Below, one piece after another: positions 1-18,090 of a stretch of 18,170 nucleotides of DNA (position 1 is the stretch's first letter; each line of letters starts with the position of its first letter). The notes beneath the pieces were generated by a model. That model searched no databases. It was not told the origin of the DNA and saw only the letters and a program-made list of their open reading frames with translations. This DNA is from a virus (taxonomy: Duplodnaviria; Heunggongvirae; Uroviricota; Caudoviricetes), in IMG/VR virus record IMGVR_UViG_2802429219_000014; one strand, given 5' to 3'. The translations under genes were made by a program, and so were the position numbers.

Positions 1-1236
1 CTACGATAACCGCGCATTCAACATGGCTACCTGTTCGTCGTTCATGTCATCAATCCACATACCGTAAATTTCATACACCATCTGCGCAGTTTCATGCCCC
101 ATCTGGCTGGCTATAAACGCCGGGTTCGCTCCTGCCGTCAACAGCCAGCAGGCAAAAGTATGCCGCGTATGGTACGGATTACGGCGGCGAATACCAGCAC
201 GTTTTACTGCTGCATTCCATCTCGCACCCAAACTGCTTACCGAGTAATAAGGTTTCTGTTTTCCGTTACACACTCTGGGCATGAAAACAAAATGCAGTTT
301 TTGCTTTTCGGTTCTGCCGTACTCCCGATGATAAAAAGTGATTTCGCTTTTGCGATGATGCCCGGTCAGTTTGTATTGCTCCTTCAGTGCTTCAAGAGCA
401 GGCTGCAGTAGTGTTACTGTCCGGATCCCGGCATTTGTTTTTGGGGGACCGAACATATCAAGTATCGTCAGGTTTCTTCTGACATTCACTATTCCCTTTT
501 CGAGATCCACATCCTCCCACGCCAGAGCTGCCAGTTCCCCGTGACGAAGTCCTGAGTAAACGGCAAATTTCCACAAGTTCTGGCTCTGTCCTTTTTCACT
601 TTCCATTAATGCATTGAATTCTGTTTTAGATAACGGATCAGGCTTTATTCTGTTTCGCTGTAATTTTTTTACTCCTTCAAATGGTTTGGTTGATATAAAT
701 CCCGACTGATACGCAAAACGCAACAGCGAACAGAGCAGGGCGATATAGTTATCAACTGTGCGCACGGTTCTTCCTTTTTTGTTGGATCTTGGATTATCCA
801 GGTAAAGCGTTTCTCCATGCAGCAGTTCATTCCGGTAGTTTAAGATATCGCTATAACGAATATGTGATATCGGGGTACTTTCACAAATTATTATTCTGAG
901 TGTTTTTAATTGTGATTTCGTTTTCTTCATTGTGTTTGTTGTTAACTCTGTCTCTTTAATTTTTGTCCAGATATCACAAAGCTCTCCGAACGTTTTTATG
1001 ACTCTCGTTGTCACCATTTTTGCCCCAGTGCTGGACTGGGGAAAACGTCTTAAATACTCAAATTCACCGGAGTTTATTTCATGAACTATCAGCGCTCTTA
1101 AATTTCCGGCCTTTTTAATATTACTGTTTGTAATCTCCCAGCCTTTTAATGTTTCCCGACATCGTTTTCCTCGAAACATGAACCAGATGCGAATGTATCT
1201 ACCTCTAATCTCGACACCTGTTGGTAATTTAGACAT
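1..1236 (-). CDS. intR: Tyrosine recombinase, Rac prophage integrase (411 aa); stop codon is at the first bases of the window
   Basis: Complete 411-aa ORF; size, sequence recollection and position at the head of the int-xis-ralR-recT-recE block match Rac IntR. No search run. Confidence 0.9.
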   Translation of the reverse strand: MSKLPTGVEIRGRYIRIWFMFRGKRCRETLKGWEITNSNIKKAGNLRALIVHEINSGEFEYLRRFPQSSTGAKMVTTRVIKTFGELCDIWTKIKETELTTNTMKKTKSQLKTLRIIICESTPISHIRYSDILNYRNELLHGETLYLDNPRSNKKGRTVRTVDNYIALLCSLLRFAYQSGFISTKPFEGVKKLQRNRIKPDPLSKTEFNALMESEKGQSQNLWKFAVYSGLRHGELAALAWEDVDLEKGIVNVRRNLTILDMFGPPKTNAGIRTVTLLQPALEALKEQYKLTGHHRKSEITFYHREYGRTEKQKLHFVFMPRVCNGKQKPYYSVSSLGARWNAAVKRAGIRRRNPYHTRHTFACWLLTAGANPAFIASQMGHETAQMVYEIYGMWIDDMNDEQVAMLNARLS

Positions 1237-1531: not shown

Positions 1532-1741
1532 TTAATTTGAATACAATGCAATTCTCGAGGACTGAAGTTTCTCGCAATTAAAATTTATCAGTTTTACTTT
1601 CTGCTCTCTGGAAACGCCTGCTTCTTTTTTACCTGAGAGCATTTTTTTGCATTCTGATTTCGTTAGTTTAGATTTTGAATATCTTGTCCAGTTAGTAGGA
1701 GTGCCACATTCCTTTTCAATAGTGGCGGTAATTTTATACAT
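1532..1741 (-). CDS. ydaC: Rac prophage small protein YdaC-like (69 aa)
   Basis: ATG at 1741 preceded by a strong SD (GGAGGTG on the coding strand); overlaps the ralR 3' end by 8 nt; position matches K-12 Rac ydaC. Confidence 0.65.
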   Translation of the reverse strand: MYKITATIEKECGTPTNWTRYSKSKLTKSECKKMLSGKKEAGVSREQKVKLINFNCEKLQSSRIALYSN

Positions 1742-1984: not shown

Positions 1985-2794
1985 TTATTCCTCTGAATTA
2001 TCGATTACACTGTATTCCCCGGTTAATACAGAGGAATCTGCAGGATCGATTGTCAGTGGTTCCTTTTCATCCATTGATACTGCACGCTGGATCTCAATTG
2101 ATACGGGCAGATATTTGAACAGGCGACGAATAGCCGTTTTCTTTGCCATTTCTTCCCAGTGAGTTACCCACGGCCCGTTATTACCAGCTTTACTCAGGCT
2201 GCGCACCAGCTCAATCTGTTTGCGCGTCATAACTTCAAACTGAGTACCTCCGTCTTTCAGTCTTGCGACAGCATAGACGTGGGTAACCGGGGCATCTTCG
2301 TTTTCTCCCGGGCGGTGTATTAACTTTTCATCAAGGCCAAATTCGAAGCTAAACTCGTCACCTTCACGGACAACACGGGCTGACAGGCTGGCGATTTGAC
2401 CAGAACGGCGAGCCAGATCAATCATGCCGCGATAGCCAATGATTAGCTGAACGTTCTTTTTACCGCTCTTTTCGTTTTTATTACCAAAAGGCAGTAAATA
2501 TGCATGACCGAGGGCGCTACCTGGCTCAAGTCCGAGCTGTGAACACTGTACGATCGCACTGACAAAACTCATAGTGTCACAGTTTCCTAACGCCGGAACT
2601 TTACGAATTTCTGTGGTGGCGATACGGATCATACGTTCAGCCGTCATATGGCGTGGAAGAGCTGCTGCCAGTTGCTCTTTCATTGATGGCTGGTTAATAA
2701 AACTAATCACGTCGCTATTTTTAACTGCTGCTGGTGCACGGTTTCCCTGAGTTTTTTGCAGATCGGCTTTTGCGATTGGTGGTTGCTTAGTCAT
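1985..2794 (-). CDS. recT: RecT single-strand annealing recombinase (269 aa)
   Basis: 269-aa ORF from the internal ATG (MTKQPPIAK...); size and sequence match RecT; start is 8 nt inside the recE 3' end. Confidence 0.9.
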
Positions 2795-5387
2795 TTGCAT
2801 ATTCCTTAGCCCAGCGGGGCAGTGATAATGTCTTAATAGCTGGCCATTCATCGGTATTCAGGCAGTCAGACAGGGTTCGCAGATTGCGGTGATATTCCTG
2901 TTGACCTGCCAGTTTTGCTTCTTCGCCCATCATGAAAATTTCAACCGGATAACGTCCGCATTCAATAGTTGTGCTGGCAACCAGAAAAACGAAAGTTGGC
3001 TGCACTCCAAACTGTGCTTCATAACCGTCACTGTAGAATGCATCCTGAACGTGATAGCGGTAGTCGTAATAAGCGGTTTTGAATCGTTGAATATCCGCCG
3101 TAGTTTTCACGTCCATGATCCAGTGAAATTCAGGGATAATTTTGTCCGGACGGCACCGACACAAAATTCCTGTTTCAGGATCTTCCCAGTAAATTGATGA
3201 TTCAGCGTGTCCGGCGCTTTCAACAAGCCATTGCCCCAGCGGCAAAGCCATAACGCTTTGATACATGAGTTCAATTTTCCGGCCTTCTTCCGCAGTGATA
3301 ACCGTTTTTCCTGTGCTTGCGCATTCCATCAGAAACGCTTTCTCTTCTTCTTTTCCGGCGTTTGTACGGCGGTTAAATTCAGGTGCTACGATAAAGCGGT
3401 TACTGAATTCTTCCGGTTCAAGTACCCGGCAGTGGAAAGCGGTTCCTAAATCGAGCGTTTTTGTCTTTGTGGTGTCCACGGGGGCATTTTTACGCCACAA
3501 ATATAGTGCCGGAGTATCAGCAATGTCATCGAGCTGAGACTTACTGACACCGGGACCCGCGTGGTAATTCTCATTCGAAATTCCGTAATAAATACCTGGC
3601 TCTATGTCTTCTACGATTACGGGATCTGCGACTTCGCCAGTTTCATCACTGCAATCGCGATGCGGATCGCTGCCAGCATTCTCATTGTGCGGATGTTCAG
3701 CGCCTTCCATTTCCTCCGGATCATTTTCCTTAGCTTCAACCTGACTCTCTTCATCGAATGTTTCCTGGTATGTTGCGTCGCCCATCACCGCACCACAGTC
3801 AGGGCAGTTATCCCCGCCAGTCTGGCCGCAGGCATTGCAGGCTATTTCCGGTTCCTGTTGCACTACTGGCTCAGGTTGATTCATATCCGGGCTGGTTTTT
3901 TCCGTTTCTGGCTGGTTCTGGTACACAGAGTCGCGAGTCTGGATCCCCTTTACCCATTTCGGATCGTTCGGGTCGCTAATTCCGTCAACAAATTCACCAC
4001 GTGATGCAGCAAGCAATTTATCGGCATCGACAGGATCTTTTGATGGAATGTTTTTCCGGGCTTCATGGAGTTCTGCCCGCAGTTCCTGATATTTCGCATC
4101 AACAGAATTTACCTGTGACTGAGCATCCAGCGGCTGCGTGTCCTGATGATGTTCAGTTGCGTCCGGTTCCATTGTTTCAGCCTCTCCCTGTTCAACTGCC
4201 GTTGTTCCAGATGGTTGCGGTTTTTCTTCATCATCCTGTTTTCCTTCTTCTGTTACTCGCTGCGGCATCGGGGCAGAGGAGCGACCGCAGGCAATATCCA
4301 CGATTTCCGGATCAGGGTTGGCATGATCGGTTTCAGTCAGTACTTTGTTCAGATATTCAGTGACGTGCGCGGGGATGACCTCGATCCCAATTGGTGCTTC
4401 TTTTACGGACGCAACCACGATGGCGCGGGAATAATCCAGCCCGCCAGGCATGGTGATGAATTTGTCGCGGAAAACAGAAAAGGGCGGTTTATTTTCAGCG
4501 ATAATTTCCTCAATGCGTTTAGCGTGTGCCGGATGAAGGTTATAGATGTCCAGATCCATTGAACGGGCCAGTACGCCAGTGGCTACGTCGCGCGCCAGTG
4601 ACGTCAGATCGTGTACGAAACCTTCGCCGCGATCGGTGAGGTTTCCGCCGCCAGCATTAGCACCGGAAGCCGTGCGAGTGATGTGTGAAACACGATTACC
4701 CTTCATCCACTCTTTTGTCAGCAGTCCTCGATCGGTGTAGTCAGCGTTCAGGTATGCTTCGAAAAAAGCAGTTATCAGTCCCAGGTTTGAATTACCAGGA
4801 TTAGGGAAAACTTTGTCAGTGTCACGAACCAGTTTGTGGAGTTCGCGAATTTCCAGCGGGTCGAGCAGGCTGGTTTTGTGGGAAACAGCCAGGGCAGTAA
4901 CAGCCGGTAGTTCTTCAGCCCGAGCAATGTGTAATGCCTGGAGTCCGTCGCGTGAAACGTGCGTTACCGGTTTTTCGCTGCCGTGTTGAGCAAGCCAACG
5001 AATGGGCAGTTCCTGGCCAGAAATTGGGAGTAGCATATTCTCCTCAATCTCAGTCATGTCTTCGCCGTTGACGTTGGTATTGCCTTGATAGTGAGCGTTG
5101 TCTGGTGCTGCTCCCGGTTTTAGTTCCCATGTCATGGAGTCTTTGCTGAGTTGATAGCGTTCACTCCAGGTAAAATCGATCTCACCTTCAGCGGGCAGGT
5201 CATTAACGACAGGAAAATTCGTGGCAACAGCTTTAAAATAGCTGCTCAGTTTTTTACCTGACTTAACGATCAGGTAGTCCAGAGTGGCACAGGTCGATTC
5301 AAAATCGTTGCTTGCCCACAGGACGACGTCAGGTTCACCGGATGATTTTTTCGCTTTCCGTAACAGGAAGAGTGGTTTTGTGCTCAT
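2787..5387 (-). CDS. recE: RecE exonuclease VIII (866 aa)
   Basis: 866-aa ORF with acidic/Pro-rich central linker region and C-terminal nuclease domain; size and order match Rac recE. Confidence 0.9.
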
Positions 5388-12657: not shown

Positions 12658-12833
12658 TGCTGCGGGTGCTTGAGGCTATCTGCCTCAGGCATGAACACCA
12701 AAAGGCAGATAGAGAAAAGCCCCAGTTAACATTACGCGTCCTGCAAGACGCTTAACATTAATCTGAGGCTCAATCTATGCTGAACACATGTAGGTTAGCC
12801 TCTTACGTGCCGAAAGGCAAGGAGAAGCAGGCT

Positions 12834-12989
12834 ATGAAGCAGCAAAAGGCGATGTTAATCGCCCTGATCGTCATCTGTTTAACCGTCATAGTGACGGCAC
12901 TGGTAACGAGGAAAGACCTCTGCGAGGTACGAATCCGAACCGGGCAGACGGAAGTCGCTGTCTTCACAGCTTACGAACCTGAGGAGTAA
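12834..12989 (+). CDS. hokD: Hok/Gef-family type I toxin (51 aa membrane peptide), HokD/RelF-like
   Basis: MKQQKAMLIALIVICLTVIVTALVTRKDLCEVRIRTGQTEVAVFTAYEPEE; single TM helix plus the conserved Hok C-terminal core; SD AAGGAG 9 nt before the ATG. Confidence 0.85.
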   Translation: MKQQKAMLIALIVICLTVIVTALVTRKDLCEVRIRTGQTEVAVFTAYEPEE

Positions 12990-15240: not shown

Positions 15241-15316
<76 letters not shown>

Positions 15317-15319
15317 TAT

Positions 15320-15394
<75 letters not shown>

Positions 15395-15755: not shown

Positions 15756-15782
15756 AACCGCCGTATCAGGCGGTTTTTTTTA
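15756..15782 (+). terminator. Strong intrinsic terminator (AACCGCC-GTATCA-GGCGGTT followed by eight or more T)
   Basis: GC-rich hairpin immediately followed by a long T tract, read in the sequence. Confidence 0.65.
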
Positions 15783-15827: not shown

Positions 15828-16166
15828 CGGCAATGCCATGTAAGTCAGTGATGAATATGGCGCAAAAAAAGCGCGGCTGTCGGATTAACGCCGCGGGACA
15901 AAGTCCGTGAAGAAGAATAAGTATCGGTCTCCTTCCGGAGACGAGTTGATATTACTAAGCTTTAAAAATGGTTTAAATCCTCAGATTAACCTTAATTTCA
16001 GATAAGGTTTATTTCATTTTCTCCGCGTCACATCCGACGCACATCACATCAGATAACACCACACAAAAGGCATCTGCGGGTGTCTTTGACGGGGTGTTTT
16101 TTACGGGCCGCTGGTGGCCATTTTTTGTTTCCATTACACAGCGCCCGCATCTGCGAGGTGGGGGTT

Positions 16167-16382
16167 ATGAAATCCATGGATAAGTTAACAACGGGTGTCG
16201 CCTATGGCACCTCCGCAGGCAGTGCTGGCTACTGGTTTTTACAGTTGCTCGATAGAGTAACTCCGTCACAGTGGGCTGCAATCGGTGTGCTGGGTAGTCT
16301 GGTATTTGGCTTGCTGACGTACCTGACAAACCTTTATTTCAAGATTAAAGAAGACAAGCGTAAGGTTGCACGGGGAGAGTAA
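16167..16382 (+). CDS. Class II pinholin with dual start (MKSM...; 71/68 aa), phage 21 S-like
   Basis: SD GAGGTGGGGG before the ATG; dual-start Met-Lys-Ser-Met motif; two TM segments; aligns from memory with S21. Confidence 0.85.
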
Positions 16383-16386
16383 TTCA

Positions 16387-16731
16387 ATGACACAAAACTA
16401 TGAACTGATTGTGAAAGGGATCCGCAATTTTGAGAATAAAGTTGCGGTAACTGTAGCATTAAGGGACAAAAAACGCTTTGACAGTGAAATTTTTGACCTG
16501 GACATCTCGCTGGACCGTGTTGAAGGTGCCGCGCTGGAGTTTTATGAGGCAGCAGCCAGAAGGAGCATCAGACAGGTCTTCCTGGAAGTTGCAGCCGGGT
16601 TATGTGAAGGGGATGAGCAGTCGCCGGAAAAGCGCCCCGTAATTTTAGAGGCGCAGAATGTGTGGATAACCTACAAAGGAAAGCTACCAGGAAGAATTAC
16701 TGATTCTCTGAAGACTCCACCGAAATGGTAA
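16387..16731 (+). CDS. Hypothetical protein (114 aa) between holin and endolysin, possibly YdfR/DUF1327-like
   Basis: SD GGGGAGAG before the ATG, 4 nt after the holin stop; K-12 Qin carries ydfR in the equivalent position. Confidence 0.55.
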   Translation: MTQNYELIVKGIRNFENKVAVTVALRDKKRFDSEIFDLDISLDRVEGAALEFYEAAARRSIRQVFLEVAAGLCEGDEQSPEKRPVILEAQNVWITYKGKLPGRITDSLKTPPKW

Positions 16732-16969
16732 TTTTACCAGCATATTTTTCTTCCAGTAATGCCGCCAGCCACTTGAAAGAATTTTGTTGTTCCTGGGACC
16801 ATTTGGGGTTGCGTGATTCAAGCAGGAGCGATGCCAGTGTTGGTTGCATTTGTTCTCTGGGAATTGATAAGGCCAAATATGAAAATGCAACAGTGAGGGC
16901 ATTTACATCATCCCGAAGCTTTGAAATGCAGTCGAGCAACTCCTGTAGAGAAATGGTGTTATTGTCCAT
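16697..16969 (-). CDS. Candidate reverse-strand hypothetical protein (90 aa) inside the lysis cassette
   Basis: Good SD (AAGAGGA, 6-nt spacer) before the ATG at 16969; helical-looking composition; 3' end overlaps the preceding plus-strand gene by 35 nt. Confidence 0.35.
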   Translation of the reverse strand: MDNNTISLQELLDCISKLRDDVNALTVAFSYLALSIPREQMQPTLASLLLESRNPKWSQEQQNSFKWLAALLEEKYAGKITISVESSENQ

Positions 16970-17074
16970 AAATAATCCTCTTGATTGTCTTTACCTTTTC
17001 CCCGCCTGATTCAACAGGCCAGGACAGATAAACATGTCCAGGGTTCAGAAACCGATAAATCCTGATAAATATCC

Positions 17075-17608
17075 ATGAACGCAAGAATCAAATACGGCCT
17101 GTCAGCGGCCGTTCTGGCGCTGATTGGAGCAGGCGCATCTGCTCCTGAGATACTTGACCAGTTTCTGGATGAAAAAGAGGGTAACCACACTACGGCATAC
17201 CGCGATGGTTCCGGCATATGGACCATCTGTCGAGGGGCCACGATGGTGGATGGTAAACCTGTTATTCCTGGCATGAAACTGACGAAGGAAAAATGCGATC
17301 AGGTTAATGCCATTGAACGGGATAAGGCACTGGCATGGGTGGAGCGCAATATTAAAGTGCCACTGACCGAACCACAGAAAGCGGGTATAGCGTCATTTTG
17401 CCCCTATAACATTGGCCCCGGTAAGTGTTTCCCGTCGACGTTTTATAAGCGGCTGAATGCAGGTGATCGTAAAGGTGCCTGCGAGGCGATTCGCTGGTGG
17501 ATTAAGGACAGGGGGCGCGATTGCCGCCTTCGTTCAAATAACTGTTACGGTCAGGTTATTCGTCGTGATCAGGAGAGCGCATTAGCCTGTTGGGGGATAG
17601 ATCAGTGA
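17075..17608 (+). CDS. SAR endolysin (177 aa, T4-lysozyme fold, GH24-like), phage 21 R-like
   Basis: N-terminal Gly/Ala-rich weakly hydrophobic signal-anchor-release segment ([18 protein letters not shown]) followed by an E...D...T catalytic region. Confidence 0.9.
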
Positions 17609-18090
17609 GCAAAGTCACTGCGATTATTTCCGTTTTGATTATCTGTATCATCGTTTGCCTGTCATGGGCTGTTAATCATTACCGTGATAATGCCATTACC
17701 TACAAAGCACAACGCGATAATGTGACGGAAAAACTCAACCAGGCGACCGCAATCATTACTGACATGCAGATACGCCAGCGTGATGTTGCTGCACTCGATG
17801 CAAAATACCTGAAGGAGTTAGCTGATGCGAAAGCTGAAAATGATGCTCTGCGTGATGATGTTGCCGCTGGTCGTCGTCGGTTGCACATCAAAGCAGTCTG
17901 TCCGTCCGTGCGTGAAGCCACCATCGCCTCCAGCGTGGATAATGCAGTCTCCCCCAGACTGGCAGACACCGCTGAACGGGATTATTTCACCCTCCGGGAA
18001 CGACTGGTAATGATGCAGGCCCAACTTGAAGGTGCTCAGCAATTGAGCTGGCCCCCTGAAATACCAGACAGTAGATGTATCTTAAAATAA
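17605..18090 (+). CDS. Rz i-spanin (161 aa, GTG start overlapping the endolysin stop)
   Basis: N-terminal TM segment plus coiled-coil region; aligns from memory with lambda Rz apart from the last ~15 residues. Confidence 0.8.
17825..18010 (+). CDS. Rz1 o-spanin lipoprotein (61 aa), embedded in the +1 frame of Rz
   Basis: Lipobox LVVVGC after a signal peptide; Pro-rich mature part; wholly contained within Rz. Confidence 0.85.

Follow-up and report, generated by a model that had tools for sequence, protein, structure and literature searches.

A probable reverse-oriented accessory gene in an otherwise ordinary S21-type lysis cassette of a Rac-like lambdoid prophage

Why should a gene be read against the late genes in the middle of a phage lysis cassette? 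The question is raised by a stretch of 18,170 nucleotides (nt) of caudoviral DNA (IMG/VR record IMGVR_UViG_2802429219_000014), called here the window. Its lysis genes are arranged in the order S21-type pinholin, ydfR, a spacer with a reverse-strand open reading frame (ORF) named here X, signal-arrest-release (SAR)-type lysozyme and Rz/Rz1. An earlier note on this DNA had regarded the plus-strand gene and the reverse ORF as inserted cargo, with possible antisense interplay. The coordinates given there were all correct: the holin gene, the plus-strand gene of 114 amino acids (aa), the 343-nt spacer, the reverse ORF at 16697-16969, its strong Shine-Dalgarno sequence and the 35-nt overlap. The locus is probably an ordinary S21-type late lysis operon of a Rac-like lambdoid prophage, with one reverse-oriented accessory (moron) gene that is expressed in the lysogen. 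X is a swappable add-on, and the cassette layout is ordinary and not a new lysis mechanism.

Gene X encodes 90 aa on the minus strand (16697-16969). It is preceded by a Shine-Dalgarno sequence, GAGGA (16976-16980, minus strand), which can be read 6 nt 5' of the ATG at 16969-16967. The product matched the PHROG profile phrog_2411 over its whole length, residues 1-90 falling on profile positions 1-90 of 90 (E 4.9e-57), and in other genomes the gene is called as a coding sequence by the Prokaryotic Genome Annotation Pipeline (PGAP) in the same layout. The ratio of nonsynonymous to synonymous substitution rates (dN/dS, Nei-Gojobori) was 0.14-0.40, about 0.2, for copies at 98, 94, 86 and 70% nucleotide identity. 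Third codon positions held 24 of the 39 and 44 of the 83 substitutions in the two most distant copies compared. The reverse frame was open over the homologous region in six of six copies, one of them, on a plasmid (L007), being without an ATG start. The GAGGA motif was retained in four copies (L001, L002, L009 and L008) despite their diverged flanks.

The same DNA holds a 94-aa ORF on the plus strand (16725-17009), which was considered as a gene and rejected, as stop codons interrupt it in four of the six copies (phage Chlobot/L002, L009, L008 and L007). Its dN/dS was similar to that of X because both frames share their third codon positions. The ratio alone cannot separate X from this shadow ORF; ORF integrity does. 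From these sequence comparisons X is judged to be a real protein-coding gene, small and widespread.

Two copies of X at about 70% identity were found outside prophages. One of them (L008, NZ_CP178690, 2446-2718, minus strand) lies by the adhesin/siderophore receptor gene iha among remnants of insertion sequences (ISs). It is an intact 90-aa ORF, identical in 60 genomes. In a MAFFT alignment its flanks show stretches of some tens of bases that are similar to the 3' end of ydfR and to the leader of the lysozyme gene, and no coding capacity for YdfR or lysozyme was detected around it by tblastn. This suggests that the locus may be a relic of a lysis cassette in which only X remains intact. The other copy (L007, 2471-2725, minus strand) is located on the 249-kb plasmid p-1122, downstream of an autotransporter gene, and its short flank similarities suggest a similar relic.

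Word-indexed searches with X returned only proteins of Escherichia and Shigella, at 71% identity or more. An exhaustive profile search with a second profile round extended the family to about 120 clusters. Among them are a Citrobacter group (55-60% identity), proteins borne by phages (30-45%), and chromosomal proteins of about 92 aa (33-40%) from many Serratia species, Sodalis (insect endosymbionts included), Chania, Gibbsiella, Chimaeribacter and Acerihabitans. Even at 28-40% identity the homologues keep a core motif, ELLxxIxxLRxxVNxLxxAFxYLAFxxxxExxxxTIxALxFESxN...F..L, and the distant relatives tested all matched phrog_2411 reciprocally. The last 12 or so residues are without conservation. 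No match to X was found in Pfam, NCBIfam or PADLOC, and the anti-phage defence models of PADLOC matched neither X nor YdfR at E <= 1.

The AlphaFold2 model of X, built from the broader alignment, had a mean predicted local distance difference test score (pLDDT) of 81. Helices were predicted at residues 8-35, 38-52 and 59-76, followed by a disordered tail at 81-90; the part of the tail that overlaps ydfR scored below 50. The protein is acidic (isoelectric point 4.6) and predicted to be soluble, with neither a transmembrane segment nor a signal peptide. Maximal Kyte-Doolittle averages over 19 residues were 0.93 and 0.84 for the X/YdfR pair, which indicates that both are soluble.

The chromosomal members of the family were surveyed at 45 loci, retrieved with one genome per species by a profile scan with an alignment of the chromosomal subgroup. 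The order pyrC-dinI-X-bssS-solA, all on one strand, was found in 43 of the 45, in the Serratia/Sodalis group (L025-L067; e.g. L025, 2631-3734). The two exceptions (L068 and L069) comprise a truncated contig and an endosymbiont copy that is degraded. The taxa with the dinI-X-bssS locus are Serratia, Sodalis with its endosymbionts, Chimaeribacter, Acerihabitans, Biostraticola, Mixta theicola and an Erwinia species, and the orthologues are 60-85% identical to one another across genera. Chromosomal X follows the dinI terminator, is preceded by a promoter-like TTGGCA-17-TGTAAT in several of the loci examined, and has no antisense partner gene. These genes share the phrog_2411 profile and the core with the phage copies; they are co-oriented with their neighbours, whereas the phage copies are inverted inside late operons. 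To our knowledge E. coli K-12 has no gene at the dinI-bssS position. Control of X by LexA was considered and rejected, as the LexA boxes of the chromosomal loci were all upstream of dinI, and in the window none was detected close to X. The neighbours DinI and BssS, both small regulators, hint at stress or biofilm physiology, which is no proof.

The plus-strand gene (16387-16731) starts 4 nt past the holin stop codon and is ydfR. As the earlier note had proposed, its product was compared with Pfam profiles including DUF1327. It scored 143.7 bits with this family (PF07041; gathering cut-off 25; E 2.1e-42) and covered positions 1-92 of the 93 in the profile, and it matched phrog_406 end to end (1.2e-66). 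The protein is soluble and has no transmembrane segment. The gene lies between an S21-type holin gene and a lysozyme gene also in mEp460, the Shiga toxin (Stx) 1 phage YYZ-2008, PhiR40_1 and 2H10, and PGAP-annotated E. coli prophages show a 'YdfR family protein' at the same cassette position. A tblastn search detected it in 101 phage records, among them H-19B, BP-4795, phage 86 and many Stx1a- and Stx2c-converting phages; in E. coli, blastn located 8618 copies, spread over 4349 of the 5426 complete genomes (80%). The view that this gene is an extra one, or cargo, was not borne out by these counts: ydfR is a usual, optional component of this cassette type.

PHROG matches and an alignment of six cassettes (A1, described below) showed that the N-terminal 80-110 or so residues of YdfR are constant and that its end is variable. 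The C-terminus reads KTPPKW in the window and KTPPLA in YYZ-2008. The ends differ because the left edge of the X block falls within the last codons of ydfR. Functional data were found only for YdfR of the K-12 Qin prophage, which was reported to bind the catalytic N-terminal domain of RNase E through residues 1-72 (two-hybrid, co-purification), to co-purify with RNA, to be barely expressed in standard conditions and, when overproduced, to be non-toxic and cause no growth defect (PMC13232886). Residues 1-72, within which the reported interaction surface lies, are conserved in the window protein, which may bind RNase E and RNA likewise. Literature searches with 'DUF1327' gave nothing useful, and those with YdfR and holin/endolysin nothing specific.

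Alignment A1 comprised the window, two relatives with X (an O177:H21 prophage and phage Chlobot) and three phages without it (mEp460, PhiR40_1 and YYZ-2008). The X-less phages differ from the window by a block of about 290 nt, from 16723 to about 17012, which holds X and its ribosome-binding site. The sequence to its right is the lysozyme leader (17013-17074, plus strand), common to all variants in the alignment, the X-less cassettes included. To its left, positions 16697-16722 of the overlap (26 of 35 nt) are ydfR sequence that is also present in the X-less phages, and the last nine or so codons of X are read from it. The GC content is 0.41-0.45 across X and 0.46-0.57 in ydfR and the lysozyme gene R, a modest dip. 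The description as inserted cargo holds for the reverse ORF, which the three phages lack together with the block, and fails for ydfR. Presence or absence of the X block between otherwise collinear late operons is the polymorphism by which a moron is recognised.

The block was detected at 1354 places in 1221 of the 5426 complete E. coli genomes (22%), with 72-100% identity. It is almost always annotated 'hypothetical protein | YdfR family protein', and nearly every E. coli copy adjoins ydfR. About 16% of the ydfR copies carry it (1354 against 8618 places), and among the 50,697 phage records it turned up in only 3. The prophages with X include Stx-phage-like ones. A block 100% identical to that of the window was found in a different, Qin-like prophage of strain 2013C-4974; therefore the block moves between prophages by recombination.

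Relatives of X in phages lie on the strand opposite to the late genes, at four kinds of site. One is between the tail genes M and L, and another is upstream of the terminase region; in Citrobacter freundii the gene directly precedes that of the holin, and at the same pre-holin position in Salmonella the copy is a decayed remnant. At each of these other phage sites X and a small forward ORF overlap at their 3' ends by 7-20 nt (7-35 nt over all contexts, the window included), and the forward genes are largely unrelated. The idea that the forward partner ORFs form one family with YdfR was rejected, no PHROG or Pfam matches being found. Related to each other were only the 63-aa ORF of Citrobacter/Salmonella and a 62-aa ORF (L012), with E 8e-6 by pairwise BLAST in the set of 8. 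The C-terminal peptides of the forward genes that adjoin X look alike (GRITDSLKTPPKW, EKITGSLRAPIKL and QIFGDLKKPPSY). The resemblance is weak, and it is weak evidence that the X cassette may bring the C-terminus of the forward gene with it.

In the slot between M and L, the small forward ORF (MSLDNKVELLN..., 58-81 aa) has a constant N-terminal part and a C-terminus that varies with the reverse gene that follows. In this place some phages have a member of the X family, and Atlantibacter has a 72-aa ORF that is unrelated to it (examples are L014, 4001-4476; L081, 2501-2882; L023, 456-869). The slot between ydfR and R also has an alternative occupant. Phage 2H10 carries there an 86-aa reverse ORF of phrog_2572 (1.3e-53; L005, 2224-2484, minus strand), unannotated in that phage, which overlaps the end of a longer, 183-aa YdfR by 53 nt, and the same ORF occupies the slot in PhiR63_1, PhiR12_x and PhiR5_1. 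It is like X in slot, size and 3' overlap. Remote homology between the two was considered and rejected, as neither sequence nor profile similarity was found. The tail slot and the lysis-cassette slot follow the same logic of a constant N-terminus and a variable end, and the variable C-termini of YdfR-family proteins are explicable by reverse cargo that ends inside a small forward gene.

How would such a gene be used? In lambdoid phages late transcription requires Q antitermination, and it is silent in the lysogen. Because X faces against this transcription, it would be made from a promoter of its own while the late operon is silent, i.e. in the lysogen. Convergent transcription is unavoidable if X is transcribed, and after induction the head-on late transcription would shut X off. 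The protein is predicted to bind a partner protein of host or phage in the cytoplasm and to have no part in envelope disruption; being small, helical, acidic and cytoplasmic, it would have the profile of a protein that acts by binding another one. The 35-nt overlap (16697-16731) would be a by-product of the point at which cassette and ydfR are joined.

Several points weigh against this account. No consensus sigma-70 promoter was found for X within 600 nt upstream on the minus strand, either by eye or by a consensus scan, which is blind to weak or non-sigma-70 promoters; the best minus-strand matches (17675-17623) lie inside Rz, about 650 nt from X. No minus-strand terminator-like site follows X at 16100-16700, and the nearest one is at 15828-15804. 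With neither a promoter nor a terminator found, two classical hallmarks of morons are missing. Fold searches with the model of X gave only generic helical matches and no informative fold, which leaves the mode of action a guess. Furthermore, a minority of genomes have X variants that are frameshifted (94 aa; P0046, P0048, P0051, P0054 and P0062) or truncated (50-56 aa; P0047, P0056, P0058 and P0060). It follows that part of the X population is decaying or mis-annotated and that selection on X is not universal. Finally, X always lies by lysis genes in E. coli, Citrobacter and Salmonella, which leaves room for a role in lysis. As to annotation, some X variants are annotated from an internal Met41, and one fragment is named 'ybl58' in one source, a name for which a literature search gave nothing useful.

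It was considered whether the X locus is instead an antisense device, i.e. a regulatory RNA or a source of transcriptional interference that damps leaky lysis genes in the lysogen or tunes translation of R. The 35-nt overlap, the position of the entire X transcript antisense to the RNA between ydfR and R, the recurrence of the convergent 3' overlap in all phage contexts examined, and the long leader of R without an obvious Shine-Dalgarno sequence all speak for it. We consider it improbable, as selection acts at the protein level (dN/dS about 0.2), diverged copies retain their Shine-Dalgarno sequence, and the chromosomal orthologues, 60-85% identical across genera, have no antisense partner gene. 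The overlap moreover varies in length (7-35 nt) and lies in the unconserved tail of X, and about 84% of the ydfR cassettes do without X. No Rfam family matched the lysis region, RalA and sok being detected elsewhere in the window. A type I toxin-antitoxin reading of the ydfR/X pair finds no footing either, as there is neither a hydrophobic toxin peptide nor an Rfam antisense RNA. The overlap looks like a cassette junction and not a dedicated antisense device. This reading has several grounds: the part of X concerned is its unconserved, disordered tail, the overlaps differ in length from one context to another, no convergent partner accompanies the chromosomal orthologues, and the relatives overlap unrelated small forward genes at other late-operon sites.

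A modulation of lysis by the X protein, for instance through binding to YdfR, to the pinholin on its cytoplasmic side or to the SAR endolysin while this is still unreleased, would fit the adjacency of nearly every E. coli copy to ydfR and the position of the Citrobacter and Salmonella copies immediately upstream of the holin gene. This is quite improbable for a soluble protein without signal peptide or transmembrane segment whose gene lies on the strand opposite to the late operon. It also agrees poorly with the occurrence of relatives in operons of tail genes, in the vicinity of terminase genes and at a chromosomal dinI-bssS locus without lysis genes, or with the presence of X in only 3 of the 101 isolated phages that bear ydfR. 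Even less can be said for the view that the 90 codons are a fortuitous or decaying frame on a non-coding or formerly coding insert. The missing Pfam, NCBIfam and PADLOC matches, the failure to find a promoter or terminator and the frameshifted and truncated versions would agree with it. It is made very improbable by purifying selection and ORF retention at 69-98% nucleotide identity, by the intact ORF where the neighbouring phage genes are gone, by homologues down to 28-40% identity with the core motif, and by the confident helical model. The reading of X as a reverse-oriented moron, expressed in the lysogen, is the one that we prefer.

The remainder of the cassette is conventional. The pinholin gene (16167-16382, plus strand, 71 aa) belongs to the S21-type, class II, holins (PF04971, 7e-35; phrog_9876 and phrog_20, 'holin'), and its translation shows an MKSM dual-start motif and two hydrophobic segments. 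The spacer between ydfR and the lysozyme gene extends from 16732 to 17074. The translation of the lysozyme gene R (17075-17608, plus strand, 177 aa; PF00959, 1.4e-24; phrog_7) shows a Gly/Ala-rich, SAR-like segment at its N-terminus and an E-8-D-5-T triad. This combination is typical of SAR endolysins. No obvious Shine-Dalgarno sequence was found before the R start, and the leader is long. Just before the ATG the leader, which is conserved, has a direct repeat GATAAAT-CCT-GATAAAT; it also contains an imperfect palindrome, CCAGGACA-N8-TGTCCAGG, which is without conservation in relatives. The spanin gene Rz follows at 17605-18090 (plus strand; PF03245, 3e-45), with Rz1 embedded in it in another frame (17825-18010, plus strand; PF06085, 4e-18).

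About 520 phage records matched the cassette DNA overall, and there are cassettes that have ydfR as well as cassettes that do not. For the whole cassette (16100-17700) the closest match among complete E. coli genomes was only 95.3% identical, whereas ydfR with the X block alone was 99.7-100% identical to the Qin-like prophage of strain 2013C-4974; therefore the cassette of the window is a mosaic. In two independent genomes IS elements (ISEc52; ISEc8/IS66-family) were found between X and the lysozyme gene (L010, 1849-3018; L024, 3887-6199). They cut R off from the other late genes and probably disable lysis.

The Qin cassette of E. coli K-12 (essQ-ydfR-rrrQ-rzpQ) has the same gene order and families as the window, and so have mEp460, H-19B, BP-4795 and YYZ-2008. 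The comparison with Qin-type cassettes, which the earlier note had called for, bore out the likeness: class II holin, DUF1327 gene, lysozyme and Rz stand in the same order. In the Qin-type cassettes without X, ydfR is separated from the lysozyme gene by only 50-63 nt and no reverse gene is present, in contrast to the 343 nt with X in the window, and the C-terminal tail of YdfR varies between subtypes. The S21-R21-Rz21 cassette of phage 21 shares with the window the pinholin family, the dual start, the SAR-type lysozyme with its E-8-D-5-T triad and the embedded Rz1. S and R are contiguous in phage 21, whereas in the window ydfR and X sit between them. Like the morons of lambdoid phages (bor and lom of lambda; those of HK97 and HK022), X is an optional extra gene between conserved late genes and is plausibly expressed from the prophage; bor of lambda lies on the reverse strand next to Rz, and X is likewise reversed beside lysis genes. 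X differs from textbook morons in that it lacks a recognisable promoter or terminator of its own, its product is predicted to be a cytoplasmic helical protein and not a lipoprotein or outer-membrane protein, and the boundary of its cassette lies inside the 3' end of the upstream gene.

Other features of the window concern the prophage as a whole. Rfam matches were obtained for the RalA antitoxin small RNA (1557-1735, plus strand, 218 bits) and for the sok antitoxin RNA (12664-12839, plus strand, 120 bits); therefore the prophage carries type I toxin-antitoxin loci of the RalR/RalA and hok/sok types. An ORF of the size of RecE (2787-5387, minus strand) and one of the size of an integrase (1-1236, minus strand) were named by size only. 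Together RalA, sok and these two ORFs are consistent with a Rac-like prophage. Genes for tRNA-Thr(TGT) and tRNA-Gly(TCC) at 15241-15394 precede the lysis cassette, an arrangement shared with the O177:H21 relative. Downstream of them come a plus-strand terminator-like hairpin (15756-15775) and the strong minus-strand one at 15828-15804, which is the first predicted stop for any antisense transcript that leaves the lysis region.

Both genes are already in RefSeq, annotated as 'YdfR family protein' and 'hypothetical protein'. New here are the assignment of coding capacity to X and not to the shadow ORF, the exact extent of the indel, the enlarged family and its dinI-bssS locus, and the recurring slots for reverse cargo. 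The recurrence of these slots is of use in annotation: such reverse ORFs should be kept and plus-strand shadow ORFs rejected. The presence of ydfR is normal for the cassette type, and its RNase E binding is an experimental lead relevant to the lysis context. The understanding of the lysis mechanism is unchanged, and the finding is real but ordinary. A broader proposal, which is rather doubtful as it stands, is that X is a small enterobacterial regulator captured by phages, adjusting host stress or biofilm behaviour in lysogeny, and one of several interchangeable reverse-strand cargo genes at defined slots whose ends lie within small forward acceptors (ydfR and the gene between M and L). The fixed dinI-bssS locus gives a concrete starting point for the function of X. 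If the proposal is true, the slots would represent an unrecognised modular exchange system for lysogen-expressed genes, with a shut-off built in by head-on late transcription.

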